DNA of 64,000 bases from Acidimicrobiia bacterium (GCA_017577575.2 PKRG02000004.1:28742-92741); one strand, 5' to 3'; counted from the first letter of the stretch, positions 1-38,372 are shown. The notes: generated by a model not told the origin, from the sequence alone. Numbers and translations are program-made.

Positions 1-383
1 ACATCGACGGTGACCGCCTCGGCATCCGCAGCCACCAGTGTCCCACGATGGGTGCGGACCTTGCCGTCTTCGTCACGGGCCTTGATCACCACCTCCCGCC
101 CGACCGACTTCTCGAAATGGCGCGGCCGTTTCAGGGCCCGCTCCAGGCCGGGAGAGGTGACCTCCAACTGATACGGTCCTTCGAGGTCCGATTCGGCGTC
201 GTAGAGCCGCGAGAGCCCCCGGGAGACCTCGGCTATCCGGTCGAGGTCCAGGCCTTCCCCGTCGATCGTGACCTTGAGGGTCCGGCCCCGCCCGCGTCCG
301 ACCAGTTCGAGATCGTCGAGCTCCAGCCGCTCCGCGGCCAGATATTCGTGGGTGATCTCCCACAACTCGGCTTCCACACTCAT
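1..383 (-). CDS. rimP: Ribosome maturation factor RimP (partial; C-terminus runs off the window start)
   Basis: Not in the ORF track because there is no stop inside the window. My translation of the minus strand from ATG (383..381) gives MSVEAELWEITHEYLAAERLELDDLELVGRGRGRTLKVTIDGEG...YQLEVTSPGLERALKRPRHFEKSVGREVVIKARDEDGK. The 'EV(S/T)SPGLxRxL' block is the RimP signature as I remember it. Confidence 0.8.
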   Translation of the reverse strand, partial: MSVEAELWEITHEYLAAERLELDDLELVGRGRGRTLKVTIDGEGLDLDRIAEVSRGLSRLYDAESDLEGPYQLEVTSPGLERALKRPRHFEKSVGREVVIKARDEDGKVRTHRGTLVAADAEAVTVD

Positions 384-27640: not shown

Positions 27641-30392
27641 GTCGGCGGCACACGATCCCGATAACCTCCTCTCGGTGAGCGACCGCGACCAGGCACTCCG
27701 CGCCGACATACGCCGACTGGGGGCCCAGCTCGGGGAGGCGTTGACCCGCCAGCACGGCCCTCGCCTGCTGGAGCTGGTCGAGGAGGTCCGCGCCCTCACG
27801 AAGACGAGCCGCCAGACCGACAGCGCCGAGCCGGTCGAAAAGCTGGATGCGCTGCTCGAGTCTCTCGACCTCGAAGAGACCATCCAGCTCATGCGGGCCT
27901 TCACCGCCTACTTCTACCTGGCGAACGTCGCCGAGCAGGTCCACCGGGTCGAAGAGCTCGCCGACCAGGAGGAACAGCACCGCCTGTCGGTGACGGTCGA
28001 TCGGATCCTCGCTTCCCGCCTCGATCCCGACCTGGTGGCCGAGGTCCTCTCCCGGCTCGAGCTCCGGCCAGTCTTCACCGCACACCCGACGGAGGCGGCG
28101 CGTCGCACGATCCTGACGAAGCTGCGGACCTTGGCCGACCTGCTCGACGAGCGTCTCGACCCGCGCTCCACCGACCACGACAGAGCCCGCATCGATCGCC
28201 GGGTGGCCGAGATCATCGACCAGATCTGGCAAACCGACGAGCTCCGTCAGGTGCGCCCCGAGCCCATCGACGAAGCCCGGTCCATGGCCTTCTATCTCGA
28301 CCAACTCTTCACGGACGTGCTCCCGGCGCTGGGCGAGGCGATCGACCTGGAGCTGGACCGGCTCGCGCCCGGGTTCCACGCTCCGATCCGGTTCGGCACC
28401 TGGGTGGGCGGCGACCGCGACGGCAATCCCCACGTGACGCCGGAGGTCACCCTGCGGGTCCTGGAGATGCAGCACGACCGCGGCCTGCGCAACCTCATAG
28501 CCGCCGTGGAGGAGGTGGCAGAGGAGCTGTCCACGTCGGAGCGGATCCAGGACATCTCGGCGGAGCTGCGTGCGTCCCTCGACGAGGACCGCCGGCTCCT
28601 GCCGTCCGTGTGGGCCCGGTTCAGCCGCCTCAACGCCGGCGAGCCCTACCGGCTCAAGTGCGCCTACATCCACCAGCGACTGATCAACACCCGTCAACGG
28701 ATCCTGGAGGGCTCCCGCCACGAGCCGGGCCTGGACTATCGGAGCCCTTCCGAGCTCCTGGCCGAGCTCGAGCTCATGCGGGACAGCCTGATGGCCCACA
28801 ACGGCCAGCTCATCGCCGAAGGCGTGCTGGCCCGGCTGATCCGCAACGTCGTCACCTTCGGGTTCCACCTCGCCACGATGGACGTCCGCGAGCACGCCCG
28901 CCGCCACGAAGAGGCGGTCACTGCCCTGTACGCCCGCCTCGGCGTGGACTACGGGTCGCTGCCCCCGAAGGAGCGGACCGAGCTCCTCGCCCGGGAGCTG
29001 GAGGGCCTGCGACCCCTCTCCTCCCCTGCCACTCACCTCGACGAGCGGGCGTCGGCCACGCTCGAGATCTTCCGGGCCATCCGCCAGGCCCACGAGCGCT
29101 ACGGCGAGCACGTGATCGAGTCCTACATCGTCTCGATGGCGGCGGGAGCCGACGACGTGTTGGAAGCCGTCGTCCTGGCCCGCGAGGCAGGCCTGGTCGA
29201 TGCCGCCGCCGGGGTCGCCCGCATCGGCTTCGTTCCTCTCGTGGAGACGATCCCCGACCTGAGACGGGCAGGAGACCTCCTCGACGATCTGCTGTCGATC
29301 CCGGCGTATCGCCGGCTGGTGGAGCTGCGCGGGAACGTCCAGGAGGTGATGCTCGGCTACTCCGACTCCAACAAGGCCGGGGGAATCACCACCTCCCAGT
29401 GGGAGATCTACAAGGCACAGAAGGCGCTGCGCAGCGCCGCCAGCCGCAACGGCGTGACGCTTCGGCTCTTCCACGGCCGCGGCGGCACCGTGGGCCGGGG
29501 CGGTGGGCCCACCCACCAGGCGATCCTCGCTCAGCCGTTCGGGACGATCGACGGTGCCATCAAGGTCACCGAGCAGGGAGAGGTCGTTTCCGACAAGTAC
29601 GGCCTGCCCGAGCTCGCCAGCCGCAACCTGGAGCTGGCGATGGCCTCCGTGCTCGAGGCTTCGCTCCTCCATCGCGAGTCTCGCCAGCCGAAGGAAGTCC
29701 TCGACCGCTGGACGGAAGCGATGGAGGCCTTCTCGGAGGGCGCTCACCGCGCCTATCGCCGCCTCGTGGAGGACCCGTCGCTCGTGCCATATTTCCTGTC
29801 GTCGACGCCGGTCGAAGAGCTAGCCGACATGAACATCGGCTCCCGGCCCTCCCGACGACCCGAGGGTGGGGGGACGCTCGACGACTTGCGGGCCATCCCG
29901 TGGGTGTTCGGCTGGACGCAGTCCCGCCAGATCATCCCCGGCTGGTACGGCGTCGGGTCGGGGCTGGTCGCCGCCCGGGACGCCGGGTACGGGGAGGTCC
30001 TCGACGACATGTACGAGAAGTGGCTGTTCCTGCAGACGTTCCTCTCCAACGTCGAGATGACCCTCTTCAAGACCGACCTCGAGATCACCCGCCGCTACGT
30101 CGACCGCCTGGTGGAGCCGGCCCACCACCACATCTTCGACATGATCTACGAGGAGTACGACCGCACGGTCGCGGAGTTGCTCCGCCTCACCGGCCAGCCG
30201 GAGCTGCTGTCCTCCAACCCGCTCCTCCGCCGAACGCTGCAGGTGCGCGACGCCTATCTGGACCCTATCAACCACCTGCAAGCGTCGCTCCTCGCCCGAG
30301 CGCGTCGCATGGGCACTCCCGACCCGGACCTGCAGCGGGCCATCCTCCTCACCGTCAACGGCATCGCCGCCGGGATGAGGAACACGGGTTGA
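27633..30392 (+). CDS. ppc: Phosphoenolpyruvate carboxylase
   Basis: Track ORF 27435..30392 trimmed. LRADIRRLGAQLG..., VFTAHPTEAARRT, GYSDSNKAGG, FHGRGGTVGRGGGP, ends ...NGIAAGMRNTG. The start is GTG 27633 (overlaps the permease stop) or GTG 27675. Confidence 0.9.
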   Translation: MSESAAHDPDNLLSVSDRDQALRADIRRLGAQLGEALTRQHGPRLLELVEEVRALTKTSRQTDSAEPVEKLDALLESLDLEETIQLMRAFTAYFYLANVAEQVHRVEELADQEEQHRLSVTVDRILASRLDPDLVAEVLSRLELRPVFTAHPTEAARRTILTKLRTLADLLDERLDPRSTDHDRARIDRRVAEIIDQIWQTDELRQVRPEPIDEARSMAFYLDQLFTDVLPALGEAIDLELDRLAPGFHAPIRFGTWVGGDRDGNPHVTPEVTLRVLEMQHDRGLRNLIAAVEEVAEELSTSERIQDISAELRASLDEDRRLLPSVWARFSRLNAGEPYRLKCAYIHQRLINTRQRILEGSRHEPGLDYRSPSELLAELELMRDSLMAHNGQLIAEGVLARLIRNVVTFGFHLATMDVREHARRHEEAVTALYARLGVDYGSLPPKERTELLARELEGLRPLSSPATHLDERASATLEIFRAIRQAHERYGEHVIESYIVSMAAGADDVLEAVVLAREAGLVDAAAGVARIGFVPLVETIPDLRRAGDLLDDLLSIPAYRRLVELRGNVQEVMLGYSDSNKAGGITTSQWEIYKAQKALRSAASRNGVTLRLFHGRGGTVGRGGGPTHQAILAQPFGTIDGAIKVTEQGEVVSDKYGLPELASRNLELAMASVLEASLLHRESRQPKEVLDRWTEAMEAFSEGAHRAYRRLVEDPSLVPYFLSSTPVEELADMNIGSRPSRRPEGGGTLDDLRAIPWVFGWTQSRQIIPGWYGVGSGLVAARDAGYGEVLDDMYEKWLFLQTFLSNVEMTLFKTDLEITRRYVDRLVEPAHHHIFDMIYEEYDRTVAELLRLTGQPELLSSNPLLRRTLQVRDAYLDPINHLQASLLARARRMGTPDPDLQRAILLTVNGIAAGMRNTG

Positions 30393-30688
30393 CCCGGAGC
30401 TTCGACGACGCGGTCCTCGAGGTCCTCCGCCGCCTGCAGCCCGGCGAGGTCGTCACCTACGGGGAGGTCGCCGAGGAAGCCGGCTTCCCGGGAGCGGCCC
30501 GGGCGGTGGGCACGTTCCTGCGGCGAACCGGCGAGGAGGTGCCCTGGTGGAGGGTCGTGGCCGCAGGAGGGCATCTCCGCGCTCCCGATCGCCGCCTCCA
30601 GACCGAGCTGCTGCGGGCCGAGGGCGTGGTGGTCCGCTCGGGGCGGGTCGTGGCGGCGGCGAGGCAGACCCGCCAGCCGACGGGATAG
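30389..30688 (+). CDS. MGMT-fold DNA-binding protein lacking the acceptor Cys (alkyltransferase-like, Atl/YbaZ-type)
   Basis: Tail of track ORF 28610..30688. The TTG start overlaps the ppc TGA (TTGA). Sequence: VVTYGEVAEEAGFPGAARAVGTFL...VPWWRVV. PWWRV replaces the PCHRV active site. Confidence 0.7.
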   Translation: MTRSFDDAVLEVLRRLQPGEVVTYGEVAEEAGFPGAARAVGTFLRRTGEEVPWWRVVAAGGHLRAPDRRLQTELLRAEGVVVRSGRVVAAARQTRQPTG

Positions 30689-32849: not shown

Positions 32850-33800
32850 ATGGCAAGCGTGTGGGTTTTCATCGAGGAAGAAGACGGCGCCCCCGCCACG
32901 GTCGGCCTCGAGCTGTTGACCAAGGCGAGGTCGCTGGGTGACGTCACCGTCGTGTACTCCGGCCCCGGCTCCGACCAGGCCTTCGCCACTCTGGGCGAGC
33001 ACGGCGCGGCGCGGGTGCTGCACGCCGATCCCGGCGACGCCCTCCCTTCGGCTCCCGTGGCCGCGGCGATCGCGGCTCGCTGCGAATCGGAGGCTCCCGA
33101 TCTCATCCTCTTCGGCCAGACCTACACCGACCGCGACGTCGCCGGTCGCCTCGCTGCCCGGCTCGGACGGTCGGTCCTCTCCAACGCCTCCGACGTCGAG
33201 CTCCGGGACGAAGCCGTGGTCACCACCCACGAGATCAGCGGCGGCACGCAGATCGCGACCGCGGAAGTGGCCGGCGAAAAGCCCCACATCGTTCTCGTTC
33301 GACCCAAGTCGTTCCCCGTCGAGCCGGCGGGCGGTGGCGCCCCCCAGGTCGAGAAGCTCGACCTCCCCGACGTCGGGCGCTCGGCGGCCCGCATCGTCGA
33401 GCACCACGTCGAGGAGCGGGAGGGGCCGCAACTGGAAGACGCCGCCGTGATCGTCTCCGGTGGCCGGGGCTTGGGCTCCGCCGAGGCGTTCGGCATGGTC
33501 GAGAGGCTGGCCAAGCTGCTCAATGCCGCCACCGGCGCCACCCGCGCCATCGTCGACGCCGGATGGGTGCCATATGCCATGCAGGTCGGCCAAACCGGCA
33601 AGACGGTCAAGCCCGACGTCTACATCGCCTGTGGCATCTCGGGCGCCATGCAGCACCTCGTGGGGATGAAGGATTCGAAGACGATCATCGCCATCAACAA
33701 GGACCCGGACGCGCCGATCTTCTCGATCGCCGACCTGGGCATCGTCGGCGACGTCCACAACGTCCTCCCCAAGCTGATCGAGGCTCTCGAGAACCGCTGA
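32850..33800 (+). CDS. etfA: Electron transfer flavoprotein alpha subunit
   Basis: C-terminal FAD block ...VSGGRGLGS...[11 protein letters not shown]...[29 protein letters not shown]... Confidence 0.9.
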
Positions 33801-33801
33801 C

Positions 33802-35400
33802 TCAGTCGGTGGCTCGCCCGACGGCGACGGCCTCCACGTGGTCGCCGTCGGGCGACATCCCCACCACCATCACGAAGCCGCGAGCGGCGTGGAGGTCGAC
33901 GTCCCCGGCGGTGTCCCGCCCGGTGATCTCATCCCAGGTCGACTCGCTCCATCGGGTGCCGTCGAGGCTGTGGATCACCCGCGGACCGGGAGTCGGGCGC
34001 GGGCTCACGAGCGGGGCGGTCATCGCCATCCACCGGTCGATCGGCATCGAGAAGGACCCTCCCGAACCCTCGAAGACGATGTGCTGGTCGACCAACCGCG
34101 CCGTCGACCCGGGGTCTCGGTCGCTCCAGACGACTTCGCCGTCCCTGAGGACAGCCAGCCCATCCGTGGTCTGCAACCGGTAGCTGTGGTCGCCGACCAG
34201 GACGGGGCGGCTCTCCGGGCGGACGTCTCCGCTCGGCCGCTCCCGCTCCAGGATGGCGATCCCCACCTCCGACCCTGCCGCCAGCGCCTGGTAGCGGTCG
34301 GGGTGGAACCCGAGCACAGGCGGCAGCAGGATCTCGGCGTCGGTAGTTCCGGGACGCCACCAGAAAGGCGCCCCGCTGCGTCCCGCTGCCGCGATGCCGT
34401 TCACCCACGGCGCGATGTCGAAAGCGGTCGCGCTCACCGGTGCCAGCTCCCACTGATGGCCATCGGGCGAGGTCAGTAGGACACCCTCCGACAGCCCGAC
34501 ATAGAGGCCGCCTGGCGTGCGAACGATCTCCTGTGGCACGGGCTCGGACGACGTGGCGATGTCGAGGAGGTCCAGGGAGTGGAGGTCGTCTCCGGTCCAG
34601 ATCGCCCGCTCCCTCACCCCTATGACGGGCTCGAATCGGGGAATGTCGGCTGTCGGGATCTCGGCGACCAACAGACCCGGGTTCAGGCGGATCCGCACCC
34701 GGTCGGGCCACACTTCGGCGCGGGCGTGGCCGTCGCGGAGGAGGCTCCCGAACGGCTCGGTCAGGTACTGGGCGACCGGGTTGGGCCCCACCCACCCTTG
34801 CACGAGGTAGCCGTCGGCGACGGGTTGGATCGCAGTGAACTCCGTGACGGCCGTCTGCGGCTCTGGGAGCGGCACCTCGCGGAACGCCCATTGGGACCCG
34901 TCCGGGGAGACGAAGATGAAGTTCTTCCACCTTCCGGTGCTCCAGCCGGAAACGGCTATCGCCAGTTCGTCCTCGGTGGCGCTGACGGCGTCGATGCTCC
35001 AATCGCCGGTGATGGTGATCGGCCCCTCCTCGGACCAGCGGACGCCGTCGGTGCTCGTCCAGACGGTGATGCCGCGGTCCTCCGTGCCGAACAACCAGTA
35101 GAGATCGCGGAACTCCACCACTCCGCCGATCTGTCGGGCGTCACCCAAGCCGACCGCCTTCGTCCACTCGAGTGTCCGGGAGACGACTTCCCCTTCGGCC
35201 ATGCTCGGCGGCACGGTGACCATGGGGATGTCGGGGAGCGTAGAGCCGGGCGGGTCGAGCTCGTTGGCCGCCGACGACGTGACCACGGCGATGACGACGA
35301 CCACCGCCACGCCGGCCAGCGCCGCCCAGACCCCTTTCAGCGGCGGCGAGTCGGGCTCTTCTCTTCGCTCGTCGTCGAGGAGAACGCCACGCTGGTCCAC
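33802..35400 (-). CDS. N-terminally membrane-anchored protein with four Asp-box-like (S-x-D-G-x-x-W) motifs; probable beta-propeller
   Basis: Track ORF 33802..35991 trimmed to GTG 35400 (start uncertain). TM helix [21 protein letters not shown]. Motifs [32 protein letters not shown]. The upstream part of the track ORF is R/P-rich and overlaps the neighbouring gene. Confidence 0.65.
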
Positions 35401-35488
35401 CCATCCGAGCCTACGCCGGCGAGGACGGCCGCGTTGATCGAACGCCTGCCCGATCCTGCCCCGGCCTCGGTACCCCTCGGACAGGTCC

Positions 35489-36127
35489 TCACGGGGTCTC
35501 GTCCGACACCGGCTCCCCTCCGCCTGAGTCGGCCGGTGCTTCCTCTTCCACGAGGGTCGTGGTGGTGGTGCCGGCAGGATCCGGTGCCTCGTCTGCGGGG
35601 ACGGTGCTCGTGGTGGTCGTGGTGGTGGCCGTCTCCTCGGGTGTCTCCGTCGCCTCGGGCTCCGAATCCGGCGGTTGGGTCTCGGCCGGATCGGTCGTGG
35701 TCGTGGTGGATCCGGCCGAGCGATCGTCGGGCTCCGGCTCGGCGGCTGCTCGCCGCGTCGGATCCGGGTCCTGGCGCGGCCAAGTGCATTCCTCCCCCGG
35801 CTGCACGACGTAGCTCGGATGTGCGTCGGAGAAGCCCTCCTGGGCGTCCACGCTGTGGACGCTGACGTGGATCGGGTTCTCTCCCGGGGCGAGGAAGTAG
35901 TTGCCGGGCGAGCCGACGACTTTGCACACCCACACCTTCCCGTCGGCGGCCTCGTCGGTGACCTCGTCGGAGGTCTCGTCCTGCTGGCCATCGCCCGAGA
36001 CGCCTGCTGCCGTCACCGTGTACCGCCACGACCCCGAGTCGGAGAAGAACCCGAACGAAGGCGCGATCGTCGAAGCGGCCAGTGCGGCGACGATCACCGC
36101 CAGGGCGATTCTCGTGAGACGGCTCAT
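35489..36127 (-). CDS. Secreted protein with SipW-cognate-like signal peptide, small Cys-containing domain and Thr/Pro/Glu-rich tail
   Basis: Track ORF 35489..36565 trimmed to ATG 36127, which overlaps the sipW stop (ATGA). MSRLTRIALAVIVAALAASTIAPSFGFFSDSGSW..., then KVWVCKVVGSPGNYFLAPGENPIHVSV...GFSDAHPSYVV, then a T/P/E/D-rich tail. Confidence 0.7.
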   Translation of the reverse strand: MSRLTRIALAVIVAALAASTIAPSFGFFSDSGSWRYTVTAAGVSGDGQQDETSDEVTDEAADGKVWVCKVVGSPGNYFLAPGENPIHVSVHSVDAQEGFSDAHPSYVVQPGEECTWPRQDPDPTRRAAAEPEPDDRSAGSTTTTTDPAETQPPDSEPEATETPEETATTTTTTSTVPADEAPDPAGTTTTTLVEEEAPADSGGGEPVSDETP

Positions 36128-36702
36128 GCCGGAGCTCCCAGGTGCCGGCCGTGGGCGGAGGGCCGGAAGGCCTCCTCGCCGTAACGGACGAACCTGTACC
36201 AGACCCGGGCCTCGCTGACCAGGATCACGATGGACGGCAGGAACAGGAAGACGACTATCCCCGCCTTGGAGCTCATCCATTCCACGAGGAACCCCGCCTT
36301 CGGGACCCGGAAGACCACACCGCGGGAGATCTCTGCCGGATGGAGGGCCCAGGGGTCGACGGCGTCGTTGGCGTCGCCCTTGGTGAGGACCATCCCCTCG
36401 CCATCGAACCCGACTACGCGGTGGACCACTTCTCCGTCCCCGTGGATCGGATCCACGAAAGTCACCACGTCCCCGACCTCGAGCGGCTTCGCCATCGGAG
36501 CGGTGAGGATGACGTCGCCGGGGTGGATCACGGGGCGCATGCTCCCGCTCACCACGGTGCGCCACTGGTAGTCGGTGGCGAGGGGCAAGGCGATGACCGC
36601 CAGGGCCACCGCCACGACTGCGACCTGGACGACGGTCGCCGCGGCTCGCAGCAGACGGCGACCGATCGGGTCGGGACGCAGGTGGCGGGCCCTGGCGGTC
36701 AT
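36124..36702 (-). CDS. sipW: Signal peptidase I, SipW/archaeal-eukaryotic (Ser-His) type
   Basis: 192 aa. N-terminal TM helix, VVSGSMRPVIHPGDVIL, VGDVVTF, VVHRVV (His box), TKGDANDAVDPW, and a C-terminal TM helix. The layout matches B. subtilis SipW as I remember it. GGAG SD 6 nt upstream. Confidence 0.8.
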   Translation of the reverse strand: MTARARHLRPDPIGRRLLRAAATVVQVAVVAVALAVIALPLATDYQWRTVVSGSMRPVIHPGDVILTAPMAKPLEVGDVVTFVDPIHGDGEVVHRVVGFDGEGMVLTKGDANDAVDPWALHPAEISRGVVFRVPKAGFLVEWMSSKAGIVVFLFLPSIVILVSEARVWYRFVRYGEEAFRPSAHGRHLGAPA

Positions 36703-36721
36703 GCGTTGCTCCGTCGAGTGA

Positions 36722-37294
36722 TCAGCCGGTGTATCCGGTGACGGTGGAGAGGAAATCGAACGTCGCGTTCTGCAGCGAGTTCTGGTTCCCGCCGGTGTCC
36801 TGGAAGACGGCCGACGCCCGCACCATCATGGAACGGCCCTCGGCCAGCGCGCCGAGGTAGCAGCCGCGCTCCGACGTGAAAGCGCCTCCGTGCGGCGCAT
36901 CCCAGCCGCAGGCGGCGACCCAGTCGGTGCCGTCCCAGACCTCGTAGAGGATGGCGAGCGAGTTCCTGAACGCCGTGCTCCCGTGGAAATCGCTGTGCTC
37001 GACGAAGACCTGCAGGTCACCGTCGCCGACGTTGTTGATCCGATAGCAGTCCGAGGTCTGGTCCCCGGGCACGATTCCCTGCCACCGGTCGAAGTTGGCC
37101 GGCGTGTCGAAGTCGTACGCCGGGCTCCAAGGCCCGCTGCATTCGCTTCGGACCTCGAACGTCAGCTGCGGGGTTCCCGCCTTGATGGTGACCCGGGCGG
37201 AACCGCTGTCGGAGAACCAGGCGAATGCGCCTGCGGTGAGAGCGAACGCTGCCAGCCCCATCAGCACGAGCGACAGCGTGAGCCGCTTGTACAT
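36722..37294 (-). CDS. TasA/camelysin-like secreted protein with SipW-cognate-like signal peptide
   Basis: Track ORF 36722..37393 trimmed to ATG 37294 (GGGAGG 8 nt upstream). MYKRLTLSLVLMGLAAFALTAGAFAWFSDSGSARVTIKAGTPQLTFEV matches the 'A-x-F-S-D ... AGT-x-x-L' N-terminal signature of TasA/camelysin-type proteins. Confidence 0.7.
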   Translation of the reverse strand: MYKRLTLSLVLMGLAAFALTAGAFAWFSDSGSARVTIKAGTPQLTFEVRSECSGPWSPAYDFDTPANFDRWQGIVPGDQTSDCYRINNVGDGDLQVFVEHSDFHGSTAFRNSLAILYEVWDGTDWVAACGWDAPHGGAFTSERGCYLGALAEGRSMMVRASAVFQDTGGNQNSLQNATFDFLSTVTGYTG

Positions 37295-37477
37295 CGTGTG
37301 TACCTCCCAATTTGCCCCAATGCAGCTTCGGGCTGCTTCCGGCCGGTCTTCTCGCCCATACCCCTGAGACCGGCGGCAGGGGTGTCTACTCACGTCCTAC
37401 GCGATAGCACCTCCTGTGGATCACTGGAAGACCGCCTACAACGTAGAACATCGGTATGACAAATTCTCGTTGTGAGG

Positions 37478-37501
37478 TTCTGCCGAGGTAGGTCGGCAGA
37501 A
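37478..37501. promoter_or_regulatory. Perfect 9-bp inverted repeat TTCTGCCGA-N6-TCGGCAGAA in the divergent tasA-like/trmH-family intergenic region
   Basis: Read directly. It lies 47 bp upstream of the methyltransferase GTG (37548) and 184 bp upstream of the tasA-like ATG (37294). Terminators are not expected in a divergent region, so an operator or a 5'-UTR structure is more likely. Confidence 0.35.
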
Positions 37502-37547
37502 TCAATCCGGTGTCGGTGCGACCTGCCGCCGTCGCCATACTGGGGCC

Positions 37548-38372
37548 GTGCAACTGATCCGGATCGACGATCCCGACGACCCTCGGATCGACCCCTACAC
37601 CCGTCTCACCGACGAGCAGCTCCGACGGAGACGGGAAGGCCCTGGCGGGGACCTCCATGGCATCTTCATCTGCGAGGGGGAGCTGGTCGCCGAACGGGCC
37701 CTGGCAGCCGGGCTGGAGCCGGTGTCGATCCTCGTGGCCGACAACACCCTGCACAAGGTCCCGCCCGCCGTCGCCGAAGGGGTGCCCGTCTACGTGGGAT
37801 CGTCGGAGCTGGTGGAGAAGGTGACCGGGTTCAGGTTCCATCGGGGGTTCGTGGCCGCCTTCCGCCGGCCTCCCGAGCGCCGCCCCAAAGACGTGTTGGC
37901 GTCGTCCCGGCGGGTGCTGGTCTGCGAGAACGTCAACAACCCGACGAATCTCGGGGTGATGGTCAGGTCGGCCGCGGCACTCGGCATCGATGCCCTCCTC
38001 ATCGACCCCACCACCTGCGATCCGCTCTATCGGCGGGTGGTGCGAGTGTCGATGGGGACCGTGTTCGCCTTTCCCCACGCCCGTCTCCCGGCGTTCCCCG
38101 AAGGGCTGGAGGTCGTCGCCGCACACGGCCACCTCCTGGTGGGCCTCAGCCCCGATCCCGCCGCACCGTCGATCGGCAGCTTCCGTTTCCCCGACCGTGT
38201 CGCCCTCGTCCTCGGCGCGGAGGGCCCCGGCCTGACCGAGGAGACCAAGCGACGGGTCGATCAGATGGTCCGGATCCCCATGCGAGCGGGCATCGACTCG
38301 CTCAACGTCGGCGCTGCCGCCGCCATCGCCGCCTACGTGGTCGGCGGGCTGGACTCTCCCCCTAGAGGGTGA
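37548..38372 (+). CDS. SpoU/TrmH-family RNA 2'-O-methyltransferase
   Basis: GTG start. LVCENVNNPTNLGVMVRSAAALGIDALL, LVLGAEGPGL, IPMRAGIDSLNVGAAAAIA (SPOUT motifs). Confidence 0.85.
   Translation: MQLIRIDDPDDPRIDPYTRLTDEQLRRRREGPGGDLHGIFICEGELVAERALAAGLEPVSILVADNTLHKVPPAVAEGVPVYVGSSELVEKVTGFRFHRGFVAAFRRPPERRPKDVLASSRRVLVCENVNNPTNLGVMVRSAAALGIDALLIDPTTCDPLYRRVVRVSMGTVFAFPHARLPAFPEGLEVVAAHGHLLVGLSPDPAAPSIGSFRFPDRVALVLGAEGPGLTEETKRRVDQMVRIPMRAGIDSLNVGAAAAIAAYVVGGLDSPPRG

Follow-up and report, generated by a model that had tools for sequence, protein, structure and literature searches.

A putative TasA-type fibre module with a SipW-type signal peptidase and a candidate TapA-like partner in an uncultured Acidimicrobiia bacterium

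A 64,000-nucleotide stretch of DNA from an uncultured Acidimicrobiia bacterium (GCA_017577575.2, PKRG02000004.1:28742-92741), hereafter the window, with positions counted from its first letter, encodes four co-directional open reading frames (ORFs) on its minus strand, A (36722..37294), B (36124..36702), C (35489..36127) and D (33802..35400). With moderate confidence, we propose that A, B and C form a self-contained secretion and assembly module for a TasA-type extracellular fibre in the Acidimicrobiia (Actinomycetota), most likely a surface or biofilm fibre such as that made by tapA-sipW-tasA in Bacillus. Within this module A, a TasA/camelysin-family secreted protein of 190 amino acids, would be the putative major fibre subunit; B, with 192 amino acids, is a signal peptidase I of the archaeal or endoplasmic reticulum (ER) type, that is, the SipW type, predicted to be dedicated to its neighbours; and C, with 212 amino acids, is a second protein with a SipW-type leader and the putative initiator or anchor of the fibre, an analogue of TapA. 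D (532 amino acids) is a single-pass membrane protein, apparently lineage-specific and a neighbour only. An earlier note, made from the sequence of the window without database searches, had described these four genes with the same coordinates, which are correct, and had assigned all four to one SipW module; A, B and C hold together as a conserved unit, and comparative genomics separates D from them. Direct support comes from the family assignments of A and B, from the homology between the leaders of A and C, and from the conservation of A-B-C as a block.

The leaders of A and C were compared as profiles. When the 26 sequences of the A family and the 15 of the C family are set against each other with hhalign, 38 columns align at a probability of 97.5 and an E-value of 8.5e-12, which confirms that the near-identical FSDSGS leaders noticed at the outset do not resemble each other by chance. 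The homology is limited to the signal peptide, the (W/F)xSDSG motif and the β-strand that follows, and nothing further aligns. A hidden Markov model of the leader, built from those same families, recovers only A and C among 747 ORFs of the window, while the SipW-cognate signal peptide model TIGR04088 finds weak matches in nine of the 26 A-family members and one of the 15 C-family members. Both proteins have a single hydrophobic segment, N-terminal in each case (residues 4-28 in A and 3-29 in C). The N-terminus of A reads MYKRLTLSLVLMGLAAFALTAGAFAWFSDSGSARVTIKAGTPQLTF; its predicted SipW-type signal peptide, residues 1-25 (37220..37294, minus strand), would be cleaved between AFA and WFSD, as judged from an alignment in which W26-F27-S28-D29 of A stand opposite A28-F29-N30-D31 of TasA. 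The predicted mature N-terminus of A, WFSDSGSARVTIKAGTPQLTF (37157..37219, minus strand), is conserved in the family, with F27, S28 and G40 invariant and W26, D29, G31, V35 and F46 nearly so, and aligns to AFNDIKSKDATFASGTLDL of TasA. In C, the signal peptide (residues 1-26) and the donor-strand-like segment FFSDSGSWRYTVTAA (residues 27-41), which together occupy 36005..36127 on the minus strand, were placed by the same A/C alignment. The C leader ends in SFGFFSDSGSW, with a predicted cut between SFG and FFSD, and the C-family consensus places it between ATA and W(F/Y)SDS; D30, A40 and A41 are shared by all 15 members, S29 and S31 by nearly all.

The earlier note had expected cleavage after the FSD region, and the alignment to TasA moves it to the other side. 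Since mature TasA starts with AFND, which aligns to WFSD of A, cleavage probably occurs before (W/F)FSD in both A and C, so that the conserved Phe and the strand would stand at the mature N-terminus. The corresponding segment of TasA is the donor strand, and F29 lies in the most conserved protomer interface (PMC10151520). By analogy with TasA, the N-terminal segment of A is a putative donor strand (PMC10151520, PMC9674648).

A has 25 homologues, all metagenomic, and the searches that gathered the A and C families were word-indexed or pattern-based, so that the families are probably under-counted. Matches to PF12389 (Peptidase_M73) at E≤0.01 occur in 24 of the 26 A-family members, A included, with a best E-value of 8.5e-9. 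Ten homologues scanned singly, relatives that are 45-50% identical, score 25-36 bits, above the cutoff. These matches lie at profile positions 4-48 and 150-188, collinear and reaching beyond the signal peptide. To compare the family with TasA itself, we used a B. subtilis TasA sequence checked residue by residue against the fibre structure 8aur, in which the mature chain starts at A28 (AFND...). The hhalign comparison covers 89 columns with identical spacing at an E-value of 3.8e-5, pairing AWFSDSGS..V.I.AGT.DL with AAFNDIKSKDATFASGTLDL (AAFNDIKS..SGTLDL) and IVPGD.T.DC..V.N.G with LKPGDKLTKDFQFENNG (LKPGD..NNG). A thus carries the elements by which TasA/camelysin proteins are recognised, namely the leader, F-x-D, the G-T-x-(D/Q)-L strand, and the PGD and N-x-G strands. 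An AlphaFold2 (AF2) model of A is an all-β sandwich with a predicted local distance difference test (pLDDT) score of 76, and a Foldseek search of the PDB with this model gives weak matches, of which AbpA (7ueg), a TasA-like archaeal pilin, has the best TM-score (0.36/0.38, at a probability of 0.99). Taken together, the sequence comparisons make A a likely, divergent member of the TasA/camelysin family.

The A family also has four invariant cysteines (C52, C83, C129 and C145) and a conserved C-terminal TGYTG. Two cysteines are invariant in C (C68 and C114), and TasA has none. The invariance of these residues in both families suggests that A and C form extracellular disulfides. As a separate observation, a gene of the AhpC/Redoxin family stands two genes downstream of A-B-C in loci L005 and L011, and not in the other loci.

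B scores 74.7 bits against the archaeal-type signal peptidase I model TIGR02228 (cutoff 51.85) and 40.7 bits against the bacterial-type model TIGR02227 (cutoff 47), so that it passes the former and fails the latter, and it also matches PF10502 at 2.9e-8. Its best PDB relatives are human SEC11A/C, the catalytic subunits of the ER signal peptidase, to which the Ser, His and Asp positions of B align (SGS54M, VH94RV, GD110AN..D116). In the sequence the corresponding motifs read SGSMRP, HRVV and TKGDANDAVD, and S54, H94, D110 and D116 are invariant in seven B orthologues. Hydrophobic, probably transmembrane, segments lie at residues 16-46 and 142-169. Because TIGR02228 is passed, the SEC11A/C motifs align and the catalytic residues are invariant, B can be classed from its sequence as an archaeal/ER-type Ser-His-Asp signal peptidase I of SipW type, and not as a housekeeping LepB-type Ser-Lys enzyme, as had been read from the motifs. 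Against NF046067, the equivalog model for Bacillus SipW, B reaches 65 bits with a cutoff of 190; by these scores it is an enzyme of the same type as Bacillus SipW and not its orthologue. That B cleaves the neighbouring A and C is a prediction from adjacency and from the leader common to the two.

A further feature of B is a strongly conserved cytoplasmic tail after the second transmembrane segment (residues ~163-192; 36124-36216, minus strand), with the pattern E..RVWYRF(I/V)RYG..AF.P...GRH, in which W168, Y169, R170, R173, G175, F179, R186 and H187 are invariant in the seven orthologues. The C-terminal tail of B. subtilis SipW is reported to have a second, non-proteolytic role in the formation of surface-adhered biofilms. 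The tail of B may have a regulatory or partner-binding role.

The triad A-B-C, or B-C where a contig ends, recurs in the same order and with the same B/C overlap in at least six flanking contexts. These include trmH and etfA, as in the close relatives of the window; redoxin, WS_DGAT and EamA genes; an ABC-transporter ATPase and an SDR gene; a Trp_oprn_chp gene; and a K+ transporter gene. C lies directly after B in every examined locus where that side is readable, and the overlap of the ATG of C with the TGA stop of B, as ATGA, is found again in L017 and L019. By this recurrence, A-B-C is best described as a conserved unit. A scan of GTDB genomes with the A alignment yields three loci, a figure that depends on a leader-peptide pattern and is probably an under-count.

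Beyond its leader and strand, C has nothing in common with A. A globular domain of about 55 amino acids (residues 62-117; 35777..35944, minus strand) has the pattern KVWVCK...NPIHVSV...GFSDAHPSYVV...C.(V/W)P, including the two invariant cysteines, and is followed by a low-complexity tail rich in Thr, Pro and Glu (residues 118-212; 35492..35776, minus strand), which has no membrane anchor or sorting signal. Scans of the Pfam and NCBIfam libraries and profile searches of the PDB return no model and no relative for the domain, and none of the eight family members scanned has a Pfam model over it. Nevertheless, the domain is widespread. Searched against 1.84 billion proteins, its profile matches 442 representative clusters with E≤1e-3, of which 56 reach E≤1e-10, and the E-values go down to 1e-30. 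Among the top 150 matches, at least 43 have a C-terminal LAxTG/LPxTG sorting signal and about seven have a SipW-type leader, and some proteins with the domain also carry DUF7507, TIG or CWB2 wall-binding domains. We regard it as a candidate new domain family, found mostly in actinobacterial surface proteins. Where it occurs (proteins P0040-P0187; KVWVCK...NPI.VS...F.DA.PS[FY]V), it usually follows the signal peptide directly and is sometimes duplicated.

Because this domain is mostly found in sortase-anchored proteins, in which the SipW-type leader is rare, C looks like a chimera, with the leader and strand of a fibre subunit joined to a domain of sortase-anchored surface proteins. The link to such proteins fits a role in the envelope or in adhesion, and the tail may be a wall-spanning, possibly O-glycosylated stalk. 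It had been stated that the locus holds no TapA-like gene. In the sense of homology this is so, and yet C has the three functional hallmarks of TapA (PMC10151520): its predicted mature N-terminus resembles the donor strand of the major subunit, its gene is translationally coupled to sipW, and the rest of the protein, a globular domain and a disordered tail, is unrelated to that subunit. C would accordingly be a non-homologous analogue of TapA, serving as initiator or anchor of the fibre.

From these elements we infer the position of cleavage, the formation of a fibre and the part played by C in the following scheme. A and C would be exported by the Sec pathway with their special leader, which B would remove just before (W/F)FSDSG. 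Mature A would then fold as a disulfide-containing TasA/camelysin β-sandwich and polymerise by donor-strand exchange, each freed N-terminal strand entering the next subunit. C would present the same N-terminal strand on another body, the two-cysteine surface domain with its long Thr/Pro-rich tail, and, being unable to accept a strand in that body, would donate its own to the first A subunit. In this way C would start or cap the fibre, and its domain or Thr-rich tail would attach the fibre, as TapA does, to the cell envelope, or else to a substrate. Were C an initiator, the protein, or the peptide FFSDSGSWRYTVTAAG, would be expected to speed the polymerisation of mature A. The fuller form of this proposal, a disulfide-stabilised TasA-type fibre in Acidimicrobiia whose initiator or anchor arose as a chimera of leader and donor strand, widespread surface domain and Thr-rich stalk, is put forward only tentatively.

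Several results weigh against this proposal. A itself lies under both curated cutoffs, with 18.9 bits against PF12389 (gathering cutoff 22.5) and 17.5 bits against TIGR04088 (cutoff 19), and C has no match to TIGR04088 at E≤1. The earlier note, which had likened A to TasA and camelysin and had proposed searches of both proteins with the camelysin and SipW-cognate models, is therefore borne out in part: the assignment of A stands on the matches of its family, including relatives that pass PF12389, and on the alignment to TasA, with A just short of each threshold, and C finds no support in these models. When the signal peptide is left out, the hhalign similarity between the A family and TasA, though collinear, becomes weak (E-value 0.0035 for the mature protein and 0.077 for the C-terminal half). 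The top 50 Foldseek matches of A do not include TasA (5of1, 8aur), all TM-scores are ≤0.38, and other β-sandwiches score alike; profile and sequence searches of PDB chains with A likewise return no TasA and nothing relevant. As for C, its AF2 model has a pLDDT of 52, with the segment after the leader and the tail disordered (the leader and strand region is of low confidence in this monomer model), and no homology to TapA was found by Pfam or NCBIfam scans or by PDB profile searches, which return no TapA chain. Finally, every sequence on which the families are built is metagenome-derived.

Some of these points are what would be expected if A and C were processed by B and did not form fibres, acting instead as soluble or wall-associated proteins such as adhesins, matrix-binding proteins or antimicrobial proteins, with the shared segment serving as a recognition element for the peptidase. 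The concentration of the similarity between A and TasA in the leader and first strand, the weak fold match and the presence of the C domain mostly in ordinary sortase-anchored surface proteins would all suit this explanation. We nevertheless consider it unlikely, since the similarity of A to PF12389 extends to the C-terminal strands (150-188) and to the PGD and N.G strands, and since a strand is conserved in both A and C for about 15 residues past the predicted cut. Moreover, the characterised superfamily members that have a dedicated signal peptidase I, namely TasA, BsaA and AbpX, all polymerise (PMC9674648, PMC11580942, bioRxiv 10.64898/2026.01.04.697558), which supports the analogy to a fibre. 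Names in the databases suggest still other functions. The Pfam family is called 'Camelysin metallo-endopeptidase', and the Joint Genome Institute (JGI) annotates three homologues as 'predicted ribosomally synthesized peptide with SipW-like signal peptide', so that A might be a camelysin-type (M73) metalloprotease, or A and C might be precursors of ribosomally made peptides with a SipW-like leader. This is very improbable. The invariant residues of A include no HExxH or other metal-binding motif, on which ground the protease was rejected, and the naming of the family as a peptidase is regarded as probably mistaken (PMC11580942). A peptide precursor was rejected as well, A being modelled by AF2 as a folded β-domain of 165 amino acids and not a short peptide, and modifying enzymes being absent from every examined locus.

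A different alternative keeps the fibre and enlarges the module, so that all four genes form one system in which D is a membrane-anchored β-propeller acting as platform or anchor. D is co-directional with C and 88 nucleotides downstream of it, with no predicted terminator between them, and close relatives whose A proteins are as little as 63% identical still have C and D side by side; co-transcription of the two in the lineage of the window is possible. Elsewhere the association breaks down. Homologues of D form only three protein clusters and always stand beside etfA, and D is absent beside A-B-C in L005, L006, L008, L010, L011 and L019. In L017, the tail of B (...RVWYRFVRYGREAFEP...GRH) is followed by a C-family gene and then directly by etfA, with no D, and in L013 D is preceded, at 10 nucleotides, by the 3' end of a gene for an HNH-type endonuclease (...LILLCRYHHTLIHRQGW...); the fragment at 1-180 (plus strand) of L013 scores 18.5 bits against PF01844, and the synteny D-etfA-etfB-deoA-ppc is kept. 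The presence of an HNH endonuclease gene before D suggests insertion of a mobile gene at the position that A-B-C occupies in the window.

Nor do the features of D recommend it as a propeller. A single hydrophobic segment (residues 19-49) and exactly four S-x-D-G-x-x-W motifs (residues 116, 165, 311 and 478) are present as first described, and an orthologue starts with M at the position of the GTG start of D. The canonical Asp-box is S-x-D-x-G-x-T-W, and the motif in D is one residue shorter. D has no FSDSG leader, no family in Pfam or NCBIfam, whether propeller, BNR or other, matches it at E≤1, its sole PDB match is the sialidase NanC at an E-value of 1.5, and its repeats are weak by self-hhalign (E-values of 0.01-0.03). 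The description as a membrane-anchored propeller is accordingly not supported by these searches. Given its absence beside A-B-C elsewhere, the direct junction of B-C with etfA and its position behind an HNH gene, D is best read as a lineage-specific neighbour and not as a member of the module, and a four-gene system is improbable. D and its two orthologue clusters share a conserved acidic cytoplasmic N-terminus, GVL(L/I)DDE..(D/E)EP..SPPL(K/R)GVWAA, before the transmembrane segment. The last ~100 residues of its ectodomain weakly resemble residues 68-171 (self-hhalign E-value 0.019).

At the nucleotide level, A starts with ATG and has a GGGAGG ribosome-binding site at 37303..37308 (minus strand), 8 nucleotides before that start, as read directly from the sequence. 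A and B are separated by 19 nucleotides, and B and C overlap by four. A scan of 33600-37700 finds no promoter-like site and one terminator-like hairpin, located inside A and no more than is expected by chance; a hairpin between C and D is not significant (z = -1.7) and is not kept in relatives. The GC content at third codon positions (GC3) is 0.85-0.90 in A-D and 0.86-0.92 in eight flanking genes, so that the composition of A-D looks native, as had been supposed, and a recent horizontal import was rejected. The flanks are housekeeping on both sides, with ppc, an alkyltransferase-like gene, deoA and etfBA on one and trmH-like, cdd, ftsY and smc genes on the other, and the nearest public sequences are Acidimicrobiia metagenome-assembled genomes; near-identical contigs occur in the SRR24097782-87 series. 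Across the whole window (1-64000) there are no tRNA genes and no Rfam families at the gathering threshold. The alkyltransferase-like gene (30392-30688, plus strand) shares one base with the end of ppc and encodes a protein of 98 amino acids with a match to PF01035, the 6-O-methylguanine-DNA methyltransferase DNA-binding domain, at 1.2e-19. Because VPWWRVV replaces the active-site cysteine motif PCHRV, this protein is probably an alkyltransferase-like (ATL) damage sensor rather than an active methyltransferase.

Bacillus biofilms have TasA-type fibres as their chief protein scaffold, and relatives of TasA form archaeal pili and cannulae. We know of no member of the TasA family that has been studied in Actinomycetota, nor of data on surface structures in the uncultured Acidimicrobiia, which are common in soils and waters. 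The earlier note had held that no such module was described experimentally in high-GC actinobacteria, and a literature search for an experimental actinobacterial SipW/TasA system indeed found none. The implied novelty was overstated, for homologues had already been noted bioinformatically: PF12389 homologues in Actinobacteriota were reported by Wang et al. in 2022 (PMC9245690), and in a 2026 preprint, sequences from Actinomycetota fall in the central TasA cluster, with signal peptidase I genes often co-localised (bioRxiv 10.64898/2026.01.04.697558). What is new here is a subfamily of Acidimicrobiia proteins with cysteines, the order of the genes and, most of all, a non-homologous TapA-like partner built on an unannotated domain. 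Since sequence surveys had already revealed systems of this kind and placed them in the phylum, the value of the locus is moderate. It offers a minimal system of three genes, whose initiator is apparently a protein unrelated to TapA, a means of testing whether a donor-strand mimic alone suffices to nucleate such fibres, and a first context for an unannotated domain of hundreds of actinobacterial surface proteins. If the proposal is correct, it would show that the initiators of TasA-superfamily fibres evolve through the grafting of a strand onto arbitrary surface domains, and Actinomycetota would have their first defined TasA-type fibre system.

Among known systems, the archaeal bundling pili of Pyrobaculum (AbpA/AbpB) have a jelly-roll subunit, as proposed for A, although the match to 7ueg is weak, and their first complementing strand has been proposed to come from AbpB (PMC9245690). 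In contrast to A, AbpA has no dedicated peptidase, and the accessory proteins of AbpA and AbpX are unrelated to C. Pyrodictium AbpX does have an adjacent TIGR02228 signal peptidase gene, as A has B (bioRxiv 10.64898/2026.01.04.697558), but the AbpX-linked peptidases, bacterial and archaeal, are reported to have ten transmembrane helices, compared with two in B. In Clostridium perfringens, sipW-bsaA-bsaB-bsaC encodes a dedicated SipW together with distant homologues of TasA and a secreted accessory protein unrelated to them, much as A-B-C does, and its major subunit BsaA is an isopeptide-locked donor-strand-exchange polymer (PMC11580942). It differs in having two TasA-like genes instead of one and in its accessory protein BsaC, a type IV pilin-dependent von Willebrand A (vWA) protein; no N-E-K triad and no vWA protein were seen at A-B-C, where no search was aimed at them. 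The actinobacterial LAxTG/LPxTG surface proteins with a KVWVCK domain belong to the same unannotated domain family as that of C, but have ordinary signal peptides and sorting signals, whereas C has a SipW-type leader, a donor-like strand and no sorting signal.

The fullest comparison is with tapA-sipW-tasA of B. subtilis, which likewise comprises three genes, for a major subunit with a β-sandwich fold (a predicted one in A), a dedicated ER/archaeal-type peptidase and a minor secreted protein. TasA and A share the leader and strand motif (A/W)F-x-D ... GT-x-L with equal spacing. The resemblance to TasA is otherwise remote; A is shorter (165 mature residues) and has four invariant cysteines where TasA has none. 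C in turn has a 55-amino-acid two-cysteine domain and a Thr/Pro-rich tail instead of the immunoglobulin (Ig) domain of TapA, the gene order is A-sipW-C rather than tapA-sipW-tasA, and the host is a member of the high-GC Acidimicrobiia rather than Bacillus. In both systems, the minor protein begins, once mature (a prediction in the case of C), with a mimic of the N-terminus of the major subunit, and its gene overlaps sipW; the overlap in B. subtilis is between tapA and sipW, whose products are both of low abundance (PMC10151520; Roske 2023). Here, too, the minor-protein gene C overlaps the peptidase gene B and A has a strong ribosome-binding site of its own, an arrangement that supports the analogy to tapA-sipW-tasA beyond the shared strand.

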